From positions 1 to 20,390 of the IMG/VR virus record IMGVR_UViG_2579778982_000025: a DNA stretch of 20,390 nt; one strand, written 5' to 3'. Of the stretch, positions 3,701 through 16,564 are shown piece by piece. Position 1 is the stretch's first letter. Each line of letters begins with the position of its first letter. The notes beneath the pieces are model-generated. The model did no database searches. It was not told the origin of the DNA and saw only the letters and a program-made list of their open reading frames with translations. The position numbers were made by a program, and so were the translations under genes. Source of the stretch: a virus. Taxonomy: Duplodnaviria; Heunggongvirae; Uroviricota; Caudoviricetes.

Positions 3701-4765
3701 TTACACCTGTGCGACGTTATACCATGTGCCATTGATGTATTTTTGTATTGGCCTGAAGATGGCTTCATCATCGCCATCTACTTCACCAATGATTCTTAAT
3801 CCGGTAATTGCGTGTCCGGCTTTTTCATAACGACCACCACGCGCCATCAATTGAACAACACGTGTGCCAAGTCGGACATCTCTCACATAGCGTGAGTCAA
3901 AATTGCCATAATTGTCGGGAATAACTTGCGCACCACAAAGCCAGTTACCGTTATTATCCATGTACGCCTGACCATCGGTGCCATTGGCTGTCCTTGAGTT
4001 ATTAATCATGTAGATGCCAAATTGCTTGTTCCCCAGTCCACCTATCATGAACTTTCGGTCGGCGTGATTCTGGCGAAGTAACGCCTGAGCGCTATCAGTG
4101 TTAACTATATTTTTCCCAAAGATAGCGTTGTTATCGCGCATCTGAATCCACATACCATTACTGCTGTTAATAGCAAAACGGTCTGAAAGTGTCTCCCCTG
4201 AAACATTAAGACCACGCCCCATCGAAACAGCGCCAGTAGCGTTATTAATCCATAATGGCCTTAATCCGTTATAAGTCCCCATGTTGTCACCGGAGTTTGT
4301 CAACATGAAGTATGTATCTGAACCATCATTACGAATAAAGAATCCGTAATTACCATAAGCAATACGTAGGCCGTTTGCTGATTTTGATATGACTTCGCCA
4401 TTTACAATGGCATTGACAAGAACATACAAAGCATCCCATTTAAGATTCATCAGGTCTTTTGTTGTGGTACTTTGTTTGCTTCTCCATTTGAAATATTCAT
4501 TGCCGTTGTCGCCTGTCTCAAACCACATGTATGAATCAGTGTCACCATCGGCATCATTTTTAAATCCAATCTTCGCCCAGTCAGTATTTCGAATCCAAGC
4601 AAGGATTGAGTCATTTTCAAAAGTAAGCCCACCGGACAAGGTATCGCCATTCTTTTGCACGGCGTTACCAACCCTGTTTACCGTTTCCTGCAAACCGAGG
4701 TTTTTGAGAATTGCCTCTGTGTCGTCTGGACGATATTTTTTTCCGCTTTTAGCAACAATCGCGGT
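3701..4765 (-). CDS. tail fibre protein, alternative variable C-terminal module, fused to a 24-codon remnant of a constant region
   Basis: Minus-strand frame is open from the stop at 4766-4768 down to 3701. Passes through the right crossover site with the same NLGLQETVN codons as the left module. Only 24 codons (TAIVAKSGKKYRPDDTEAILKNLG) lie outside the site. C-terminus ...IQKYINGTWYNVAQV. The ORF-track start at 4693 is a TTG inside the crossover site. Confidence 0.7.
   Translation of the reverse strand, partial: TAIVAKSGKKYRPDDTEAILKNLGLQETVNRVGNAVQKNGDTLSGGLTFENDSILAWIRNTDWAKIGFKNDADGDTDSYMWFETGDNGNEYFKWRSKQSTTTKDLMNLKWDALYVLVNAIVNGEVISKSANGLRIAYGNYGFFIRNDGSDTYFMLTNSGDNMGTYNGLRPLWINNATGAVSMGRGLNVSGETLSDRFAINSSNGMWIQMRDNNAIFGKNIVNTDSAQALLRQNHADRKFMIGGLGNKQFGIYMINNSRTANGTDGQAYMDNNGNWLCGAQVIPDNYGNFDSRYVRDVRLGTRVVQLMARGGRYEKAGHAITGLRIIGEVDGDDEAIFRPIQKYINGTWYNVAQV
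4685..4710. repeat. right inversion crossover site (inverted partner of 1635-1660)
   Basis: Plus strand ttcctgcaaaccgaggtttttgagaa; reverse complement aligns to the left site with 3 mismatches. Confidence 0.8.
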
Positions 4766-4774
4766 TTAGAAAGT

Positions 4775-5329
4775 ATGCAATATGGTTATGCGAGGGTGTC
4801 AACTTTTGACCAGAATTTGGAATTACAACTGGAGGCGCTCAGGAGTTCAGGATGTGACCGGATTTTTGAAGATAAAATATCCGGTGCTAAATCAAAACGA
4901 CCAGGACTTGATAAGCTACTGAAGGTGTTACGTCCGGGCGATACGGTTATTGTCTGGAAGCTGGACCGAATGGGGCGTTCTCTGATTCATCTTGTTGATT
5001 TACTTAACCATTTTTTATCAAACAACATTGAGTTTATTTCGATTACGGAAGGGATAAAAATTAGCACTTCAATTGGCCGCTTTGCCTACACGATGCTGAG
5101 TGCAGTCGCAGAGATGGAGCGGGAAAATATGATTGAAAGAACGCGTGCAGGATTGGCGGTGGCAAGGGCTAACGGCAGGATAGGAGGACGCCGCTCAAAG
5201 CTGGCACCAGAGCAATGGGAACAGATCGGAAGGCTTATTGCGAATGGTGTTTCACGTAAGCGGATAGCGATTATCTTCGATGTTACCTTATCCACGCTTT
5301 ACCGCAGGTTTCCGGCTGGGAATCATTGA
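4775..5329 (+). CDS. serine recombinase (invertase/resolvase family), invertase 2
   Basis: MQYGYARVSTFDQNLELQLEAL...VIVWKLDRMGRS...AVAEMERENMIERT...GGRRSKL...STLYRRFPAG, 184 aa. ATG at 4775; the ORF-track 4655 start is an unsupported N-terminal extension. Candidate promoter TTGCCT (4711-4716) - N17 - TATTTT abuts the right crossover site. Clearly divergent in sequence from invertase 1. Confidence 0.8.
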   Translation: MQYGYARVSTFDQNLELQLEALRSSGCDRIFEDKISGAKSKRPGLDKLLKVLRPGDTVIVWKLDRMGRSLIHLVDLLNHFLSNNIEFISITEGIKISTSIGRFAYTMLSAVAEMERENMIERTRAGLAVARANGRIGGRRSKLAPEQWEQIGRLIANGVSRKRIAIIFDVTLSTLYRRFPAGNH

Positions 5330-5473: not shown

Positions 5474-5511
5474 TTATGATTGTGGGTGTCTGGTTGGAAA
5501 CTGACCAGATA

Positions 5512-5630
5512 TGGAAACAAAAAGCCCGCAGATAAATCTGCGGGCTTCTTGCGACATCCACGGAAAACCAACAACAACAATCCATGGGCGCCTCGACAAC
5601 TCCCATTATACGTTGGTTTTCCGTGGACGC
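5512..5630 (-). ncRNA. candidate CopA-like antisense RNA of the repA leader (IncFII-type copy-number control)
   Basis: Two hairpins in the repA leader. A long stem-loop has a 15-bp stem ccacggaaaaccaac (5558-5572) / gttggttttccgtgg (5612-5626) and a ~39-nt loop. On the minus strand it is followed by aagcccgcaga-ttta-tctgcgggctt (5522-5547) and then a T-run (complement of 5509-5520), a rho-independent terminator oriented for minus-strand transcription. The RNA ends are not mapped. Confidence 0.45.
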
Positions 5631-5642
5631 AAGAGCGAACAT

Positions 5643-6491
5643 ATGGATAGACCAATGCCGTCTCTACGTTCCGCTTACGTTTGTAATTTGTCGCCGGAGT
5701 TCCAGCCTCCAAAGCACCATACGCACAAGCTGCCGCTGGTGTTATCTGATGCTTTACAGCGCATTAATGGGCGTGATCTTACGTGTGAGGTTGCGTTCTA
5801 CGTTAATCAACCGTCAGAGCGGAAGCGCCGGATAAACGAGCATCGTCGTCGGGCGATTAATGCTGTGATCGCTGCGATTTTGCACCATGTAAACATCATT
5901 TCTAAGCGGGTTCTGGCTAGTGCTGAGGCGTTGGCTGATTTTTGCGGCCTGTCTACCGTATCCGAAGCTGGGAACAAGTCTATAACGCGCTGTACAAGGG
6001 CGTTGTCGCAACTGAAAGCGTTAGGGTTTATTGATTATGAACGTCGCTGGGATCGGGTGAATAAACAGTATTGGCCAGCGAAAATAGAGATTCGTGATCA
6101 ACTGCTGGAAACCGTTGGTATTACTGAACAAGCATGGAGACGTGCGGTTAGCCAGAAACTTAATTACTTCAATGCGAAGAATAGCGAACGGCTTAAAAAA
6201 GCGATAACGGAGGCTGATTATAAGCGTATTGTTATTCAGGAGCAGATGGAGAATGTATGGCGTCAGAGGAAGACGGCCAGAGAGATAAAGGCAAAACAGA
6301 AAGCAGCGGAGAGAGCTGCGCGTCTTGTTCGGGAAAAGGGAGAGGCCGAACTTCGTCATCAAATCACTAGAGAGGTTAGCCAGGAATTTGCTGATGGCAT
6401 GTATCCTGGAGCTGACCTTGCATATTTACGATCCCTCGTTGAGCAGCGTTATAACAGGTTAAGAAAGACCTGGAAATCACTCCAACATTAA
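5643..6491 (+). CDS. repA: plasmid replication initiator RepA (IncFII RepA1-like)
   Basis: ...GNKSITRCTRALSQLKALGFIDYERRWD... resembles the R100/R1 RepA1 motif (..KLSITRATRALTFLSELGLITYQ..), with an Arg/Lys-rich C-terminal half. Preceded by antisense-RNA-like hairpins and followed by a DnaA box plus AT-rich region. Start at ATG 5643 (MDRPMPSLRS...) is preferred because the ORF-track start at 5511 lies inside the antisense terminator hairpin. An IncFII-type leader peptide may exist in another frame ending at 5648-5650, but I cannot place its start. Confidence 0.75.
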   Translation: MDRPMPSLRSAYVCNLSPEFQPPKHHTHKLPLVLSDALQRINGRDLTCEVAFYVNQPSERKRRINEHRRRAINAVIAAILHHVNIISKRVLASAEALADFCGLSTVSEAGNKSITRCTRALSQLKALGFIDYERRWDRVNKQYWPAKIEIRDQLLETVGITEQAWRRAVSQKLNYFNAKNSERLKKAITEADYKRIVIQEQMENVWRQRKTAREIKAKQKAAERAARLVREKGEAELRHQITREVSQEFADGMYPGADLAYLRSLVEQRYNRLRKTWKSLQH

Positions 6492-7134: not shown

Positions 7135-7422
7135 ATGGATAAAGATACTGTTTTAAAAATGTTGAATCCGGCTTGTTTAAAAAAAGCGGATGAATGGGAA
7201 TCTCCTACATGTGGAGAAGTTCGGGCAGTCATTGGCCTGACCGGAATGAGCGGCTCGCAGTTGGCCAAAAAACTAGGCTTAAAAGATAGTCGCAATGTTC
7301 GCAACTGGCAGATGTTAAAGGAGTCCACATCCAGATCCAGCATTCCGTATGCAGCCTGGGCGCTGCTGTGTTACTTCGCTGGGTTAGGGTTAATCTTCAT
7401 TGATAACAAAACAGATGTTTGA
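7135..7422 (+). CDS. hypothetical protein with putative HTH motif and hydrophobic C-terminus
   Basis: ATG 7135 preceded by GGAG (7125-7128). 95 aa, MDKDTVLKMLNPACLKKADEWESPTCGEVRAVIGLTGMSGSQLAKKLGL... ending in IPYAAWALLCYFAGLGLIFI. No family recognised. Confidence 0.5.
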   Translation: MDKDTVLKMLNPACLKKADEWESPTCGEVRAVIGLTGMSGSQLAKKLGLKDSRNVRNWQMLKESTSRSSIPYAAWALLCYFAGLGLIFIDNKTDV

Positions 7423-7445: not shown

Positions 7446-7709
7446 ATGGAACTTGTACGCAAAACACGCAAAGAGTTCTTGGACCTGTATCGCATGGGAG
7501 CTTTCACTTGTGTTGTGGCTACCCAGGACGAAGTGACAAAAAGCTGGCGGCTTTTTGCTCTCAATAAAAAAGGGATTGCCGTTTTCATTGAAAAAGCCCG
7601 TGGTGGTATCCGCGAATGGGCGGGATTGAATTATGTGGCTGATTTTTGCGCAGCTATGGGGATTCGTCGCTGGGAAGTCCATATGCCAGGAGTAAAGTCA
7701 CAAAAATAG
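7446..7709 (+). CDS. hypothetical protein
   Basis: ATG 7446 preceded by GAGG with 6-nt spacing, 24 bp after the upstream gene, so likely one operon. 87 aa, MELVRKTRKEFLDLYRMGAFTCVVATQDEVTKSWRLFALNKKG.... ORF-track start 7419 is probably too long. Confidence 0.45.
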   Translation: MELVRKTRKEFLDLYRMGAFTCVVATQDEVTKSWRLFALNKKGIAVFIEKARGGIREWAGLNYVADFCAAMGIRRWEVHMPGVKSQK

Positions 7710-7891
7710 GGCTTTCGCGTCGAAAATGAGGCGAAACTGAAAACGAGATTTCATTAACAAATAAGCAACATAAAAAACGGTGGAAAACGCCCAGGAAAAC
7801 ATGATCTTTTGAGCGGATTTTTTAGATCCGACAATGAACGGTGATCCGGTGGTGCCGATAACGTCCATTATGTTAAATAGCCCCGTTTTTC

Positions 7892-7945
7892 TTGAAATTA
7901 TAACCTACGGGTTATATAGTTAGTGATATAAACTACAGGTTATAG
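7892..7945 (+). promoter_or_regulatory. sigma70-type promoter with two operator palindromes for the toxin-antitoxin operon
   Basis: TTGAAA (7892-7897) - 17 bp - TATAGT (7915-7920). Inverted repeats tataacc-tacg-ggttata (about 7899-7916) and atataaactacaggttatag (7926-7945) overlap the -10 and start region. RBS AGGA at 7944-7947. Confidence 0.55.
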
Positions 7946-7953
7946 GATTGAGC

Positions 7954-8301
7954 ATGTGGACGGTACTTTTTAGCCAGCGATTTGACGACTGGCTAAATGA
8001 GCAAGAAGACGCTCTTCAGGAAAAGGTTTTGGCTGATTTGAAAAAGCTACAGGTTTACGGACCTGAGTTACCCAGGCCATATGCCGATACCGTAAAAGGT
8101 TCTCGGTACAAAAATATGAAAGAGCTTCGCGTTCAGTTTTCTGGCCGTCCGATAAGAGCCTTTTATGCGTTCGATCCGATTCGCCGGGCCATCGTTCTTT
8201 GTGCAGGAGACAAAAGTAACGATAAACGGTTTTATGAAAAACTGGTGCGTATAGCTGAGGATGAGTTTGCAGCACATCTGAACACACTGGAGAGCAAGTA
8301 A
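7954..8301 (+). CDS. higB: type II toxin, RelE/ParE superfamily (HigB-like, phage Gp49-type addiction-module killer)
   Basis: MWTVLFSQRFDDWLNEQEDALQEKVLADLKKLQVYGPELPRPYADTVKGSRYKNMKELRVQFSGRPIRAFYAFDPIRRAIVLCAGDKSNDKRFYEKL.... Toxin-first order. Stop TAA overlaps the ATG of the downstream HTH gene by 1 nt. The ORF-track start 7948 is a TTG; ATG 7954 has the RBS. Confidence 0.7.
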   Translation: MWTVLFSQRFDDWLNEQEDALQEKVLADLKKLQVYGPELPRPYADTVKGSRYKNMKELRVQFSGRPIRAFYAFDPIRRAIVLCAGDKSNDKRFYEKLVRIAEDEFAAHLNTLESK

Positions 8302-8600
8302 TGAGAACATTAGATGAGGTGATTGCCAGCCGTTCACCTGAAAGCCAGGCGCGAATTAAAGAAATGGCAGATGAGATGATTCTTGAGGTCGGCTTGCAGA
8401 TGATGCGTGAAGAACTCCAGTTATCACAAAAACAGGTTGCTGAGGCGATGGGTATAAGCCAGCCAGCAGTAACAAAGCTGGAGCAGCGCGGAAATGATTT
8501 AAAGCTGGCGACGTTAAAACGTTACGTTGAAGCTATGGGAGGCAAATTAAGCCTGGATGTTGAGCTTCCCACAGGAAAGCGAGTAGCGTTCCATGTCTAA
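8301..8600 (+). CDS. higA: type II antitoxin, XRE-family HTH (HigA-like)
   Basis: 99 aa with central HTH (LSQKQVAEAMGISQPAVTKLEQ). Translationally coupled to the upstream toxin gene. Confidence 0.7.
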   Translation: MRTLDEVIASRSPESQARIKEMADEMILEVGLQMMREELQLSQKQVAEAMGISQPAVTKLEQRGNDLKLATLKRYVEAMGGKLSLDVELPTGKRVAFHV

Positions 8601-8612
8601 CATAATGTAAGT

Positions 8613-8640
8613 GTAAGGCCCCATTGGGGCCTTACTTATT
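8613..8640. terminator. bidirectional terminator
   Basis: gtaaggcccc-attg-gggccttac hairpin followed by ttatttactt, between convergent genes. Confidence 0.6.
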
Positions 8641-8924
8641 TACTTACCATTTTTGCGGTTTTTTTCGGACTTCATAAGCTGGCTAACGCGCCCTGGTGTG
8701 ATATTTAACATGCGGCTTACTTCAGCTTGTGATCCTACTTCCTCTACTAGCGATGCAACATAGCGAGATTTTCCTGAGGAGGTTAATCCATTATATGTTG
8801 CTCGTGCGACTTTTCCCTGAGCTTCTCTCATATCAACTAATGCCTGAGCAACTTGCTCAAAACCTTTAATTGTTACTTCTGTTAATGCTCGAATAGCATC
8901 AATTTCAGATTTTGGTTTAGCCAT
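8640..8924 (-). CDS. putative DNA-binding regulator (C-terminal HTH)
   Basis: MAKPKSEIDAIRALTEVTIKGFEQ...VGSQAEVSRMLNITPGRVSQLMK. ATG at 8924 with GAGG 6 nt upstream. ORF-track start 8936 is a TTG. Confidence 0.5.
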   Translation of the reverse strand: MAKPKSEIDAIRALTEVTIKGFEQVAQALVDMREAQGKVARATYNGLTSSGKSRYVASLVEEVGSQAEVSRMLNITPGRVSQLMKSEKNRKNGK

Positions 8925-8972
8925 TTGGTACCTCAAATTGTTTAAAATGTGTTAATTACAAAATTCAGCCGA

Positions 8973-11188: not shown

Positions 11189-11216
11189 AAGCGCCCAAAT
11201 CGGGCGCTTTGTTTTA
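11189..11216. terminator. bidirectional terminator
   Basis: aagcgccc-aaatc-gggcgctt followed by tgtttt, between convergent genes. Confidence 0.6.
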
Positions 11217-12356
11217 TGGTTTTGCACCTGCGGCCAGTTTATCCGCCGATATCTTTATCAGTTCCTGTAGTGTCCTGGCTGGTAGGTTTGCATCCAGTAC
11301 GCTGAGTATGCTGCTGTGATCTGCCTGGTCGACTACTTTGCCTGTCGGTGGTAGTAGCTTGAGCTGAGGATTCAGGTTTTCGTCAAAGCTGATCAGTGCT
11401 CTGGCGTTTCTGAGCAGATCAAGAAGTAAGGCTGATATCACATTTTCCTGAGTCATTGCTGGCAGATTTAGCGCCGCTTTGGTTTTCCCTGTTGCCTTGT
11501 CAAACTCCTTGATTAGTTCCTTCCTGTAGTTCGGTTCCGTTAATAGCCGATTATGCTCTGTTGCCGCGCGGATAATCGTTTTTTCCTGGTACAGTCGTTT
11601 AGCCAGATCACGCTCGTACTGTGTTTTTAACACGCTGCTGATAGCGTTAAAGGCTTCAATGTAGGCCAGCTTGATATCTTTCACGCTTGGACCGTCGATG
11701 CTCTCCATGAGTAAGGTAAATCCGTCTTTTGTCATGCGATAGATTGTTATTTCGCGGTCGCTTCCTTCCAGCGGTCGTTGCTCTTTAAAGAAGTGACGCG
11801 CCGCAGCCGTGCGAGGAATGCGTAGCGCATCGATGGCCATAACGATGGAATTGTTTGTGGTGCTGAATGCCTGGGCAACATCGGCTGAGGTTGTGAGTGG
11901 CTCGTTGTTGCACACTTTAATGTAAAACATCGGTTTGGCGTTGAGCGTATCGACAACCTCACGAGCATTGTTTGGCGAGACGGTAACGGTCGCGGCCGTT
12001 TGCGCGTTCTGGTTGAAGTAGCAGTCTTCCAGCCGTTCGAACACATCCCACGCTTGGTTAGTTTCAAGCATTTTGGCGTGACGTGCAGCCCCGCGTTCGG
12101 TCCAGAGGATTAGTTTTCTAACGTTATTCGCGATGGTTTGAAAATCTCTTAAAGAGATTTTCAAACTTTGGAGATCTGTACCTTTTACAACTATGAAATG
12201 TTTTCCTTCTGTAAACCGGGACTTATTACGGTGGTGATTTCTGTGAAGACATTCGACGCTACAGCCATATAGTTTGGCAAGCAGCTCCGTGGTGATAACG
12301 GGGATCTGGTTATGCAGGATAGGCTGTAGGGTGTTAACGGTCGGAAGCGTTTTCAT
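11214..12356 (-). CDS. phage antirepressor-like protein (ORF6N/Rha-type N-terminal DNA-binding domains, long C-terminal region)
   Basis: 380 aa. N-terminal ...ITTELLAKLYGCSVECLHRNHHRNKSRFTEGKHFIVVKG... resembles ORF6N-type antirepressor domains; a second similar segment ...TTSADVAQAFSTTNNSIVMAIDAL follows. Family assignment is from memory of motifs only. Confidence 0.55.
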   Translation of the reverse strand: MKTLPTVNTLQPILHNQIPVITTELLAKLYGCSVECLHRNHHRNKSRFTEGKHFIVVKGTDLQSLKISLRDFQTIANNVRKLILWTERGAARHAKMLETNQAWDVFERLEDCYFNQNAQTAATVTVSPNNAREVVDTLNAKPMFYIKVCNNEPLTTSADVAQAFSTTNNSIVMAIDALRIPRTAAARHFFKEQRPLEGSDREITIYRMTKDGFTLLMESIDGPSVKDIKLAYIEAFNAISSVLKTQYERDLAKRLYQEKTIIRAATEHNRLLTEPNYRKELIKEFDKATGKTKAALNLPAMTQENVISALLLDLLRNARALISFDENLNPQLKLLPPTGKVVDQADHSSILSVLDANLPARTLQELIKISADKLAAGAKP

Positions 12357-12640
12357 TTTGCACCTCCCATAACTACTTTGGTTACGAGGGAGATTTTTGC
12401 GTCAGAAACAGCGTTATCGTTGCTGGCGATGCGCATAGCTTCGCGCTCGATGATTTCAGCCAGGCGGAATTTATCGGCGTATGAGGCTTTCTTGAGAAGG
12501 ATCTTTACGAGGTTGACGTAATAGTCATGGGGTAAGTTTGTCATGATGATAGTTCCAGTTTTGATATTGGAATAATCACCACCGCTGACGCCAATCAGTG
12601 AGGTGGTGAGACGTACAGGGTTGGCGTAACCGGTCATCAT
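12353..12640 (-). CDS. hypothetical protein
   Basis: Stop overlaps the start of the antirepressor-like gene in an ATGA arrangement, suggesting translational coupling. Start ambiguous between 12640 and an internal ATG (MTNLPHD...). Confidence 0.4.
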   Translation of the reverse strand: MMTGYANPVRLTTSLIGVSGGDYSNIKTGTIIMTNLPHDYYVNLVKILLKKASYADKFRLAEIIEREAMRIASNDNAVSDAKISLVTKVVMGGAK

Positions 12641-14636: not shown

Positions 14637-15290
14637 TTACGCGGCAGTAGTCAGAGCCTCAAGCTGGTTGATAATCCCCTGAATAACGTCGTCTGCCTTT
14701 TTGCGTGGCGCAACGTATGAGCACTCAATGAGGCTTAAGCCCTTATCCTGAGCTTTGCTCAGAGCTGGCTTGTGGGGAATGTACTTATCGACAACAAAGT
14801 ATGGCGTATTAGCCAGGTACTCTTGGGCTTCAATGTAGTCGGCTTCGTTTTCAGCCGCGCCTGAGAACACCATGCAAATTTTCTTGATTGGCACACCCTT
14901 TTTAACGATGCCATGAGCTGTGTTAACGGTGGTTTCCAGGTCATCGGTAGAGAATCTGGTTGGCAAAATAACCATATCCAGAAATTCAGAGAGCTTCGGT
15001 ACTGATTCAGATGCGTAGGCACCGCCATCGACGATAACCAGGTCGTATACTTCTGATTCGATGATTTTCTGGACTTGTGATGGTGTGCCGCACGGCTGCG
15101 CCGCGATTGCAGGTTCGATATTGTTGGCCATTCTGCGTTGTACCCAACGCGTTACCGTTCCGTTAAGCACATCCATATCGATCAGGCATACATTCCAGCC
15201 GGCCTTTGCATAAGCAACTGCTAAAGCACGGGCAATTGTTGATTTGGTTACGCCGCCTTTTCCGTTGAAAATACCTACAGAGATAGTCAT
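14637..15290 (-). CDS. parA: ParA-family partition ATPase (small type Ib, deviant Walker A)
   Basis: MTISVGIFNGKGGVTKSTIARALAVAYAKAGWNVCLIDMD... has the KGGxxK[ST] deviant Walker A at the N-terminus. 217 aa from ATG 15290; the ORF-track start 15305 adds 5 residues without an RBS. Confidence 0.75.
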   Translation of the reverse strand: MTISVGIFNGKGGVTKSTIARALAVAYAKAGWNVCLIDMDVLNGTVTRWVQRRMANNIEPAIAAQPCGTPSQVQKIIESEVYDLVIVDGGAYASESVPKLSEFLDMVILPTRFSTDDLETTVNTAHGIVKKGVPIKKICMVFSGAAENEADYIEAQEYLANTPYFVVDKYIPHKPALSKAQDKGLSLIECSYVAPRKKADDVIQGIINQLEALTTAA

Positions 15291-15305
15291 TTGTCGAGAC
15301 TCCAT

Positions 15306-15907: not shown

Positions 15908-16564
15908 TCATAACCAGTTGACAACACTAACTACGCGGCCAAGAACTTTATAACGCTTAAATTCCTCGTTATTCAGATGATTAGTGTTCATTTCAGCGTC
16001 CCTTTCGGTTGACAGCATAACAGCATTGTCACCCGGTATGACTCTACAGTGCCTCAAAACAACCAGGCCATTTCTGTCTTCAAGGGCATAGATCCCCTCA
16101 TGAATCTCTGTATCGTCTGTATCAATCAGGACTTGGGAGCCAGGGGATATTGTTGGTGACATTAACTCATCGTTGCTCTGGAGAACTGACAGAGACGATG
16201 GGTTGATGTTCTTGCTTCGTAGAATCTCCTGTTCTATCGCCAGCACTGGCTTTTCTCCGGCGTGCGATGCTATGTCATTTTTTATAGCTACAAGCCCAGG
16301 AATAACAGGAGCGTTAGTATTCTGGGGTGGGAACGGGTTATCTGTTAAGCACGCGATATAAGGCGCTGATGCTTTCAGGGCGTGCGCGATTTTCTTGATG
16401 GCAGGTATAGATGGTTGTCTTAATCCGGCCTCATAGTTCTGCAAGGTGCTTAAGCCTATTCCAGTGACTTGCTGGAGATCTCCGGCAGTCATGCCGGATT
16501 GTTTCCGTAGAGTCTGAATGCGCAGACCTATTTCTTTCTTGATGTTCTCGTCGTTGCTTTTCAT
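15908..16564 (-). CDS. CI/LexA-like phage repressor (N-terminal HTH, C-terminal S24 peptidase-like autocleavage domain)
   Basis: 218 aa. N-terminal HTH (LRKQSGMTAGDLQQVTGIGLSTLQNYEAG). C-terminal region with MSPTISPGSQVLIDT and KVLGRVVSVV resembles the Ser/Lys dyad regions of LexA and lambda CI. Divergent from a Cro-like gene, with operators between. Confidence 0.8.
   Translation of the reverse strand: MKSNDENIKKEIGLRIQTLRKQSGMTAGDLQQVTGIGLSTLQNYEAGLRQPSIPAIKKIAHALKASAPYIACLTDNPFPPQNTNAPVIPGLVAIKNDIASHAGEKPVLAIEQEILRSKNINPSSLSVLQSNDELMSPTISPGSQVLIDTDDTEIHEGIYALEDRNGLVVLRHCRVIPGDNAVMLSTERDAEMNTNHLNNEEFKRYKVLGRVVSVVNWL

Follow-up and report, generated by a model that had tools for sequence, protein, structure and literature searches.

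What is the pair of small genes that lies downstream of the replication gene on this piece of viral DNA, and what would it do for the element that carries it? The window, by which we mean the whole stretch of 20,390 nucleotides (20.4 kb) that was analyzed, is part of a ~48-kb circular phage-plasmid with an IncFII-type RepA. An earlier inspection of the letters, made without database searches (hereafter the sequence-only reading), had proposed an addiction module resembling HigB/HigA, driven by its own repressible promoter. Our data make it very likely that the cassette at 7892-8600 functions as a type II toxin-antitoxin operon and belongs to the GP49-domain HigBA (Tad-Ata) class, working by the mechanism proposed in the last section. 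The pair is an ordinary member of a known module type; it is already annotated (RefSeq labels it as a RelE/ParE toxin and an HTH protein), and it leaves toxin-antitoxin biology unchanged.

Layout and setting of the cassette

The cassette consists of two small, adjacent, co-oriented ORFs with a single promoter on their 5′ side and a single terminator on their 3′ side:

7865..8600, plus strand: complete cassette, from promoter and operators to the two genes, the block common with Yersinia pestis pPCP1
7892..7897, plus strand: -35 hexamer TTGAAA, from the promoter scan
7899..7916, no strand: predicted operator box 1 (TATAACC-TACG-GGTTATA); its 7-nt arms are perfect, and related loci have homologous boxes
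7915..7920, plus strand: -10 hexamer TATAGT, from the promoter scan
7927..7944, no strand: predicted operator box 2 (TATAAAC-TACA-GGTTATA); its arms differ at one position, and related loci have homologous boxes
7954..8301, plus strand: toxin gene, 115 aa, GP49-domain HigB-like, RelE superfamily (PF05973, PHROG 3445, model fold)
8301..8600, plus strand: antitoxin gene, 99 aa, XRE helix-turn-helix (HTH_3, PHROG 2339, family profile against PDB)
8607..8643, plus strand: terminator hairpin with a T-rich run behind it, from the terminator scan and RNA folding

The toxin ORF runs from the ATG at 7954 to the TAA at 8299-8301, with a ribosome-binding site (AGGA, 7944-7947) six nt 5′ of the start codon, and the antitoxin ORF from the ATG at 8301 to the TAA at 8598-8600, with a ribosome-binding site (GGAGAG) at 8289-8294. 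In TAATG, base 8301 belongs both to the stop codon of the toxin gene and to the start codon of the antitoxin gene, giving the 1-nt stop/start overlap of a toxin-first pair that had been described from the letters. The consensus-like promoter noted at the same time was also recovered: TTGAAA-17-TATAGT matches the consensus at 10 of 12 positions and is the best of only three promoter-like sites between 7000 and 9500. A TTG at 7948 was considered as the toxin start and rejected, as it falls inside the spacer between ribosome-binding site and ATG, and the ATG is used in RefSeq annotations. The terminator hairpin, which was absent from the features listed in the sequence-only reading, ends the unit. 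Its stem (8613-8635) has 10 pairs in the terminator scan, and folding of 8607-8643 gave -23.5 kcal/mol (z = -4.09), a stability equalled by none of 200 shuffles. It lies between the antitoxin gene and a convergent ORF (8640-8936).

The placement of the pair next to the replicon was roughly right: the IncFII-family repA (5511-6491) lies about 1.46 kb upstream, with two small ORFs in between. The element also encodes its own ParA partition gene. We found the phage-plasmid in 85 of 5,426 complete E. coli genomes, and the pair was plasmid-borne in 88 of its 89 occurrences in complete E. coli genomes. The gene order is strictly kept, with the toxin gene first and a homologous antitoxin gene directly 3′ on the same strand in 84/84 related loci. 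Both genes are under purifying selection, which is strong on the toxin (pN 0.04-0.19 vs. pS 0.64-0.96 over the two genes; pN and pS are given instead of a dN/dS ratio because synonymous sites are saturated).

Family and predicted activity of the toxin

A profile-based family assignment, which had been suggested as a check on the original proposal, matched the toxin to Pfam PF05973 (Gp49/HigB-like) with 81.3 bits against a cutoff of 23.9 (E 5.4e-23), toxin residues 12-105 covering profile positions 1-89 of 90. The toxin also matched PHROG 3445 'toxin' (E 2e-33), and its score with NCBIfam TIGR02683 (upstrm_HI1419 RelE/ParE toxin) was 18.9 bits, below the cutoff of 62.85. Searches of PDB sequences with the single sequence, a profile of close homologues (A1) and a broad profile (A2) gave no meaningful match up to E = 10. 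Since the toxin family has no solved representative, it was classified by Pfam and by a fold search with an AlphaFold2 model (pLDDT 86.6). RelE/HigB structures were the top PDB fold matches (probability 1.00), namely RelE of T. thermophilus (2KHE, E 3.9e-5), HigB2 of V. cholerae (5JAA, E 8.4e-5), RelE of E. coli (4FXE) and HigB of S. pneumoniae (6AF4, TM 0.72). The toxin thus models as a RelE fold.

Two characterized plasmid systems are close to the pair. HigBA of IncC (IncA/C2) plasmids, the Tad-Ata of pEc158, is likewise toxin-first. Its GP49-domain toxin has 116 aa and its XRE antitoxin 100 aa, compared to 115 and 99 in the window, and identity is 55% to its HigB (E 8e-46) and 47% to its HigA. 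The IncC genes lie 4 nt apart, whereas those in the window overlap, and their host replicon is a large conjugative plasmid rather than a phage-plasmid, though both pairs are plasmid-borne. IncC HigB is toxic, is neutralized by HigA, lowers mRNA levels and stabilizes a plasmid (Qi et al. 2021, PMC8265657); it has been described as ribosome-dependent, and its toxicity is inactivated by the G64V mutation (PMC8265657). G64 of the window toxin aligns with G64 of IncC HigB and is invariant among close homologues; the window toxin keeps it along with every family-invariant residue. The second system, the HigBA of A. baumannii plasmids (HigBA1-Ab and HigBA2-Ab of pAB120), has the same reverse gene order as the window. 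One such plasmid pair, L006, which is either the HigBA1 or the HigBA2 variant, is 55% identical in toxin and 61% in antitoxin. RNase activity in vitro and complex formation have been reported for HigBA2-Ab (Armalyte et al. 2018, PMC5906591), and the A. baumannii toxin cleaved naked RNA in vitro (PMC5906591).

These relatives also bear on whether the toxin might be a ParE-like gyrase poison and not an RNase. The 'RelE/ParE family' name in RefSeq would fit either activity, ParE2 (5CW7) is among the weaker fold matches (E 0.019), and IncC HigB causes cell elongation (PMC8265657). However, RelE/HigB structures outscore ParE at least 100-fold in the fold search (3.9e-5 vs. 0.019), the A. baumannii homologue degrades RNA in vitro (PMC5906591), and the 55% identical IncC HigB elicits no SOS response, as lexA and recA were not induced upon its overexpression (PMC8265657). 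Residue conservation points the same way. Among representatives of 36-75% identity, conservation reaches at least 90% at R59, R68 and K87, and Y94 never varies; an hhalign comparison of the toxin family with E. coli RelE, full-length but weak (E 0.044, probability 1.2%), hints that R59, R68, K87 and Y94 are equivalent to RelE K52, R61, K80 and Y87. Gyrase poisoning is thus scarcely probable, and an mRNA-degrading RelE-type toxin is the reading that we retain.

The HigB/HigA-like label needs to be narrowed to the GP49-domain (Tad-Ata/HigBA-Ab/IncC) branch. It holds for that branch and not for the HigB proteins of P. vulgaris and V. cholerae, to which no sequence similarity was detectable; V. 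cholerae HigB2 (5JAA) was missed by the single protein and by profiles A1 and A2 at up to E = 10. V. cholerae HigB2-HigA2 shares the RelE fold and the toxin-first order with the window pair, but only 16-19% identity in structural alignments; in its HigA2, the N-terminal part neutralizes the toxin and the C-terminal part is the HTH, an arrangement that we also propose for the window antitoxin. The 'higB2' label on records of Yersinia phages traces to this V. cholerae protein, and HigBA of Y. ruckeri pYR4, considered as a close relative, was set aside because it belongs to the V. cholerae HigB-2 type. The class of GP49-domain modules with the toxin gene first and an XRE antitoxin was founded on Tad-Ata of Paracoccus aminophilus pAMI2, gp49-gp48 of N15 and s045-s044 of SXT, which are reported to stabilize replicons (Dziewit et al. 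2007, cited by PMC5906591). N15 is a phage-plasmid, like the window element, but all three modules are only distantly related to the window pair: Tad toxins have about 20% identity to HigB-Ab (PMC5906591), and N15 was not recovered by tblastn at E 1e-5.

The antitoxin and its predicted operators

The antitoxin matches HTH_3 (E 4e-10) and PHROG 2339 (E 1e-31). Its family profile (A3) aligned best among solved structures with HigA2 of M. tuberculosis (7EWC, E 9.8e-11, positions 8-90 against chain residues 11-94), followed by HigA3 (6LTY, E 2.8e-9) and S. pneumoniae HigA (6AF3, E 5e-7). The HigA2 and HigA3 alignments extend over almost the entire protein, taking in the N-terminal segment, the HTH bundle and the C-terminal beta-lid. 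These profile matches place it among the XRE-type HTH proteins, as a relative of HigA antitoxins. It can be divided into an N-terminal segment (1-30), the XRE HTH (about 32-83) and, at the C-terminus, a segment of two strands (84-99). This three-part architecture is taken from sequence alignment, because confidence in the AlphaFold2 model is low (pLDDT 62.9, pTM 0.32); the model, which places the C-terminal strands at 84-88 and 94-98, was built on a shallow alignment of homologues of at least 87% identity and was kept out of the fold search. In V. cholerae, HigA2 dimerizes via a short C-terminal helix and not a beta-lid (PMC8420761).

The two operator palindromes placed over the promoter by the sequence-only reading were confirmed as conserved elements, correctly positioned in related loci. 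Box 1, TATAACCTACGGGTTATA, and box 2, TATAAACTACAGGTTATA, are 18-nt palindromes 28 nt apart. The first occupies the spacer between the -35 and -10 hexamers and overlaps the -10 by 2 nt; the second lies over the expected transcription start and extends into the toxin ribosome-binding site. With up to three mismatches allowed, the box occurs at these two sites only in the 20.4-kb window, and none of 100 shuffles contained any match. At least one box was found in 70/80 non-redundant upstream regions of related loci (vs. 16% of control windows), and at least two in 37/80 (vs. about 1% of control windows). Their placement falls into two clusters that recur from locus to locus, homologues of box 1 beginning between -53 and -60 relative to the start codon and those of box 2 between -27 and -35, with a box-to-box spacing of 24-29 nt, and a TTGA-type hexamer stands just 5′ of box 1 in many of these loci.

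Position 6 of the box tracks residue 59 of the antitoxin, in the recognition helix. Counted over half-sites, Q59 occurs with G in 112/136, A59 with A in 28/30 and K59 with C in 14/16 cases, in statistics that ignore shared ancestry among the loci. Among all 99 antitoxin positions, residue 59 ranks first in mutual information. The window antitoxin has K59 together with ACC/GGT half-sites, whereas the IncC system has GGT/ATC half-sites and E at residue 59. This tracking and the conservation of the boxes indicate that the antitoxin very probably reads them as its operators.

Related systems carry comparable sites. The IncC higBA promoter has two boxes of the same TATA-N3-N4-N3-TATA type as the window. 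Ciprofloxacin induction and a putative SOS box were reported for this promoter (PMC8265657), and our comparison suggests that the 'non-canonical SOS box' overlaps HigA-type operator boxes. L006 has one strict upstream box (TATAGAC-TATA-ATCTATA), compared to two in the window. In HigBA2-Ab, HigA is autorepressing, with HigB as co-repressor (PMC5906591). M. tuberculosis HigA2 binds ATATCAC-N6-GTGATAT, a palindrome with ATAT as outer bases, and regulates several genes (PMC11205783). The palindrome resembles the window boxes, but it lies inside higB2, whereas the window boxes lie over the promoter.

The mycobacterial comparison raises another possibility, that the window pair is a domesticated module, acting chiefly in transcriptional control and pairing its regulator with a partner of weak toxicity or none. 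The HTH protein would then control its own operon and perhaps further genes of the phage-plasmid, in the manner reported for M. tuberculosis HigA2. The antitoxins of HigBA2 (Rv2022c-Rv2021c) and HigBA3 (Rv3182-Rv3183) are the best solved-structure relatives of the window antitoxin, their partners are GP49-domain toxins (PMC5906591), and expression of M. tuberculosis HigB2 caused no toxicity (PMC11205783). Structures have not been solved for these toxins, and the sequence searches of the PDB brought up none. They belong to chromosomal systems, whereas the window pair is on a phage-plasmid. A regulator with several genes under its control is also at odds with the distribution of the box: no further targets of the antitoxin are visible in the 20.4-kb window, since the box occurs nowhere else there. 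Moreover, the window toxin is far closer to proven toxins (55% identity) than to any mycobacterial protein, it has G64 and the family-invariant residues intact, and it is under strong purifying selection. We therefore regard domestication as very improbable. The description of the pair as a complete type II toxin-antitoxin unit is supported by the PF05973 match, the RelE-fold model, the XRE antitoxin, the invariant gene order and the proven toxicity of 55% identical toxins.

Predicted role and spread of the cassette

The mechanism that we propose is as follows. A single sigma-70 promoter would give a bicistronic mRNA, on which translation of the two genes would be coupled via the TAATG overlap. 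The 115-aa toxin, a predicted RelE-fold endoribonuclease, would degrade mRNA and so arrest translation and growth. The antitoxin, an XRE-type HTH protein, would act as a dimer. The first ~30 residues would bind and neutralize the toxin, while its pair of HTH domains binds the two palindromes over the -35/-10 spacer and the transcription start and turns the operon off, probably with the toxin as co-repressor. On loss of the phage-plasmid, the less stable antitoxin would decay and the toxin would stop growth, so that cells retaining the element would come to be favored in the population. In experiments, close relatives of the pair poison cells after plasmid loss. From the characterized relatives, we infer toxicity, RNase activity, neutralization, antitoxin lability and plasmid stabilization for the window pair, and post-segregational killing by the cassette would follow the same analogy. 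HigBA2-Ab stabilized an unstable test plasmid, but deletion of higBA2 left the native pAB120 stable (PMC5906591); a stabilizing role is therefore not guaranteed, especially as the window element has ParA.

A further explanation is that the pair may be a real toxin-antitoxin system selected for defense or competition and not for plasmid retention, either by abortive infection directed at other phages or by anti-addiction cross-talk with near-identical cassettes on other replicons, for example pPCP1. ParA would reduce the need for post-segregational killing. The element is a temperate phage-plasmid related to the Yersinia phages vB_YpM_39/41/44, whose isolation host was Y. pestis EV76, a strain of the species whose pPCP1 carries a pair 98% identical in protein; with such identity, cross-neutralization is plausible. 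A role in phage defense had also been raised by the sequence-only reading and found no support here. PADLOC gave no system-level match, only a domain-level match between the toxin and the C-terminal 100 positions of model NsnC (E 6e-7) and matches of the antitoxin to generic HTH models, and for this reason phage defense is kept as a low-probability rival. In the literature searched, we found no published defense phenotype for GP49-type HigBA, and the closest characterized relatives show plasmid stabilization and stress-responsive expression (PMC8265657; PMC5906591). Selection for defense or competition is thus unlikely, and maintenance of the phage-plasmid by a toxin-antitoxin operon remains our preferred reading.

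The relationship to pPCP1 concerns the cassette as a whole. A 736-bp block is 95.2% identical to the Y. pestis plasmid (5001-5735 of its sequence, L003); the homology starts 27 nt 5′ of the -35 hexamer and stops at the antitoxin stop codon. On pPCP1 the cassette adjoins the virulence gene pla. Co-expression of YPPCP1.08c-09c as an operon has been reported for this plasmid (r = 0.97; PMC2231364); by their position adjoining pla, these genes are probably its copy of the pair. The mapping of the gene names is given as probable because the published pla-R1 primer, said to lie within YPPCP1.08c, maps 147 nt past the antitoxin stop codon in L003. In the literature searched, we found no functional study of the phage-plasmid copy, of YPPCP1.08c/09c or of the Yersinia phages.

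The cassette is common among clinical and reference E. coli strains, the 48.5-kb plasmid of E. coli ATCC 25922 included, and it is also the pair beside pla for which co-expression, as an operon of unknown function, had been reported. Our analysis provides it with a firm family assignment and a proposed mechanism; the practical value is modest. The pairing of residue 59 with box position 6 constitutes a testable DNA-recognition rule. There is also some chance, albeit a small one, that the 736-bp cassette is a self-contained mobile unit moving between phage-plasmids and small plasmids, with its operator identity largely set by residue 59 and with a role in anti-addiction or displacement, or in phage defense, instead of plain plasmid retention. 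If so, the identity of residue 59 would keep the repressors of co-resident paralogues from acting on one another's operators, while near-identical copies, such as those of the phage-plasmid and pPCP1, would cross-regulate and cross-neutralize.

Anatomy and genetic setting of the module

The module (window 7865-8600) comprises a toxin-antitoxin gene pair, a promoter and two 18-nt palindromes, box 1 and box 2, which are candidate operators for the antitoxin.

Features of the module
7892-7920, plus strand: promoter TTGAAA-17-TATAGT, 10/12 consensus positions (promoter scan)
7899-7916, 18 nt: box 1, TATAACCTACGGGTTATA (repeat finder)
7927-7944, 18 nt: box 2, TATAAACTACAGGTTATA (repeat finder)
7944-7947, plus strand: AGGA, Shine-Dalgarno-like motif 6 nt ahead of the toxin start
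ATG 7954 to TAA 8299-8301, plus strand: toxin ORF, 115 aa (ORF listing of 7600-8900)
8289-8294, plus strand: GGAGAG, Shine-Dalgarno-like motif 6 nt ahead of the antitoxin start
ATG 8301 to TAA 8598-8600, plus strand: antitoxin ORF, 99 aa (same listing)
8607-8643, plus strand: terminator hairpin, then a T-rich run, ending the unit (-23.5 kcal/mol, z = -4.1)

The sequence-only reading had proposed a toxin-first pair with a 1-nt stop/start overlap, and the ORF listing bears this out: in the TAATG junction at 8301, the final A of the toxin stop codon doubles as the A of the antitoxin start codon. The two palindromes that it placed over a consensus-like promoter are also there. In each, two 7-nt arms in inverted orientation flank a 4-nt centre, and the two boxes are spaced 28 nt apart; box 1 occupies the spacer separating the -35 and -10 hexamers, while box 2 starts at about the expected transcription start. 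The promoter is the top-ranked of just three promoter-like sites between 7000 and 9500, and the boxes are the only such sites in the 20.4-kb window at up to 3 mismatches, with matches in 0/100 shuffled windows. Since ORFs, overlap, promoter and boxes are all present, the observation is fully confirmed.

The same reading was roughly right to place the module next to the replicon of a plasmid-state element: some 1.46 kb, including two small ORFs, separates it from repA on its upstream side. Circular E. coli plasmids of about 47-49 kb share 98-99% identity with the region; they carry genes for phage tail, baseplate and tail fibres together with a Hin-type invertase, repA and parA. Three Yersinia phages (vB_YpM_39, 41 and 44) match the region too.

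Context genes in the window (Pfam)
4655-5329: invertase
5511-6491: IncFII-family RepA
11214-12356, minus strand: Rha/ORF6N protein
14637-15305, minus strand: ParA
15908-16564, minus strand: CI-like HTH/S24 repressor

The phage genes and repA/parA of the plasmid relatives, taken with these context genes, indicate that the element carrying the module is a phage-plasmid. The module is found in 85 of 5,426 complete E. coli genomes and 88 of its 89 occurrences there are on plasmids, the 48.5-kb plasmid of ATCC 25922 among them. At every occurrence, RefSeq labels the toxin 'type II toxin-antitoxin system RelE/ParE family toxin' and the antitoxin 'helix-turn-helix domain-containing protein'.

Elsewhere in the window (11214-12640, minus strand), a 95-aa Ash-family protein precedes a 380-aa ORF6N and Rha-domain protein, the stop and start codons overlapping. 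Antirepressor-type regulators such as these are typical of phages, and the two confirm that the element has the character of a temperate phage. The adjacent small ORFs between repA and the pair (7135-7422 and 7446-7709, plus strand) match PHROG 8351 and 4595, of unknown function, the former also matching 'mobile mystery protein A' weakly (HTH-like, E 1e-4); they may form a further two-gene module. A convergent 98-aa ORF (8640-8936, minus strand) ends at the terminator hairpin it shares with the module; it matches PHROG 15590 (function unknown, E 1e-63) and, weakly, the HTH-like YdaS and sigma-70 region 4.

Families and characterised relatives

Profile-based family assignment, suggested earlier as a check, placed the toxin in Pfam PF05973 'Gp49-like' (81.3 bits, E 5.4e-23, cutoff 23.9, full domain covered) and PHROG 3445 'toxin'; the single NCBIfam model it touched scored under its cutoff. 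No solved structure was detected by sequence with the single protein, a close-homologue profile (A1) or a broad profile of representatives 36-75% identical to the toxin (A2). The AlphaFold2 model built from A1 was confident (pLDDT 86.6), its best PDB matches being T. thermophilus RelE, V. cholerae HigB2, E. coli RelE and S. pneumoniae HigB (TM ≤0.72). ParE2 scored much weaker than RelE/HigB in this fold search, and a ParE-like action of the toxin is less supported than RNA cleavage. Y94 does not vary across the broad family, in which conservation of E57, L58, R59, R68, D74, R77 and K87 reaches 90% or more. When the family profile is aligned with E. coli RelE, over the full length but weakly, R59, R68, K87 and Y94 fall opposite K52, R61, K80 and Y87; of these RelE residues K52, R61 and Y87 are catalytic, and K80 adjoins catalytic R81.

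An XRE-type helix-turn-helix spans residues 32-83 of the antitoxin (HTH_3, E 4e-10). Among PDB entries, the profile built from 31 antitoxins of related loci (A3) best matched M. tuberculosis HigA2 (7EWC, E 1e-10, nearly full length), followed by HigA3 (6LTY) and S. pneumoniae HigA (6AF3), and the window antitoxin aligned across the N-terminal segment, HTH and C-terminal part of HigA2-type antitoxins. Its own predicted structure was of low confidence and was left unused.

Two relatives are well characterised, the IncC-plasmid HigB/HigA pair (Tad-Ata; toxin 55%, antitoxin 47% identical to the window proteins) and an A. baumannii plasmid pair (55% and 61%). IncC HigB is toxic and neutralised by HigA, G64V abolishes its toxicity, its overexpression does not induce SOS, and it lowers the levels of a subset of mRNAs; the module stabilises a plasmid (PMC8265657). 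The window toxin keeps G64. A. baumannii HigBA2 has RNase activity in vitro, its toxin and antitoxin form a complex, HigA autorepresses with HigB as co-repressor, and the module stabilised an unstable plasmid, while its deletion left the native plasmid stable (PMC5906591). GP49-domain toxins form a distinct RelE-superfamily branch, toxin-first without exception and with little similarity to classical HigB proteins; members are A. baumannii HigB, M. tuberculosis Rv2022c and Rv3182, and the Tad toxins of pAMI2, N15 and SXT (PMC5906591). That the window module is chiefly a regulatory pair lacking toxicity, like the reported M. tuberculosis HigBA2 (PMC11205783), is less supported than the toxin-antitoxin reading. 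We found no published functional study of the window orthologue in the literature. The pair is a member of a well-described class, already annotated so in RefSeq, and came out as expected in every computational test.

Candidate operators and selection across related loci

Scanning one genome per species gave 80 loci whose toxins share 54-98% identity with the window toxin. With four plasmid loci added, an antitoxin homologue lay directly downstream on the same strand in 84/84. Both genes showed pN of 0.04-0.19 vs. pS of 0.64-0.96, and are therefore maintained as proteins; synonymous differences were saturated.

Using an 18-nt box criterion (7+4+7, at most 1 arm mismatch), 70 of 80 non-redundant upstream regions had at least one box and 37 at least two, compared to about 16% and 1% in controls (shuffles, or other 100-nt windows of the same loci). 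Relative to the start codon, the boxes concentrate at two positions, -27 to -35 and -53 to -60, with a spacing of 24-29 nt; the window has the same layout. They follow the pattern TATA-NNN-NNNN-NNN-TATA. Their inner three arm bases vary by lineage yet remain complementary (AGC/GCT, AAC/GTT, GAT/ATC; ACC/GGT in the window). Box position 6 tracks antitoxin residue 59, in the predicted recognition helix (Q with G in 112/136 half-sites, A with A in 28/30, K with C in 14/16), and this residue has the highest mutual information with it among all 99 antitoxin positions, in statistics that ignore the shared ancestry of the loci. Such co-variation is expected if the antitoxin reads the boxes.

The cassette (7865-8600) is 95.2% identical to Y. 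pestis pPCP1 (L003, 5001-5735), where it is convergent with pla; window 7768-7887, just upstream, is 80.8% identical to L003 7003-7122, on the other side of pla, which suggests cassette transfer or rearrangement around pla. Genes that are probably the pPCP1 pair have been reported only as an operon that is co-expressed and has no known function (PMC2231364). A 9,631-bp Amphibacillus jilinensis Y1 contig (Scaffold15, Bacillota assembly) shares 100% identity with pPCP1 along all 3,345 bp compared, and is most likely contaminating Y. pestis plasmid DNA. A mosaic relative on E. coli ETEC1702 plasmid unnamed5 (L004, 1815-2712, vs. window 7703-8590) is nearly identical for about 45 nt upstream of the -35, with antitoxin 90% and toxin only 67% identical; its operators are of the AGT/GCT type and its residue 59 is Q, vs. 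K in the window. This pattern suggests recombination inside the cassette. Upstream of higB on IncC plasmid pTC2 (L005, 1330-1380) are two boxes of the window-operator family, TATAGGTTTGAATCTATA and TATAGGATTGCACCTATA; it is possible that the 'putative non-canonical SOS box' published for the IncC higBA promoter (PMC8265657) overlaps HigA operator boxes like these.

Proposed mode of action and role

With anatomy, family membership, pairing, selection and operator evidence established in this analysis, the module is very probably a toxin-antitoxin pair. The single promoter would yield a coupled bicistronic mRNA; the RelE-fold toxin would cut RNA and halt translation, and an antitoxin dimer would bind and neutralise it via the N-terminal segment. 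On both boxes, which overlap RNA polymerase binding elements, the dimer would repress the promoter. Upon loss of the element, the antitoxin would decay and free the toxin. By analogy with the relatives, we expect toxicity, RNase activity, neutralisation, differential stability and stabilisation of the element.

Post-segregational killing is, on the same analogy, somewhat favoured as the main selected role; we rate it below the toxin-antitoxin reading because the element has ParA and the A. baumannii module is dispensable on its own plasmid. A defence or anti-addiction role is less supported than killing. Three points add a little to a routine annotation: the recognition rule proposed for residue 59, the sharing of the cassette with pPCP1 and the possible reinterpretation of the IncC 'SOS box'.
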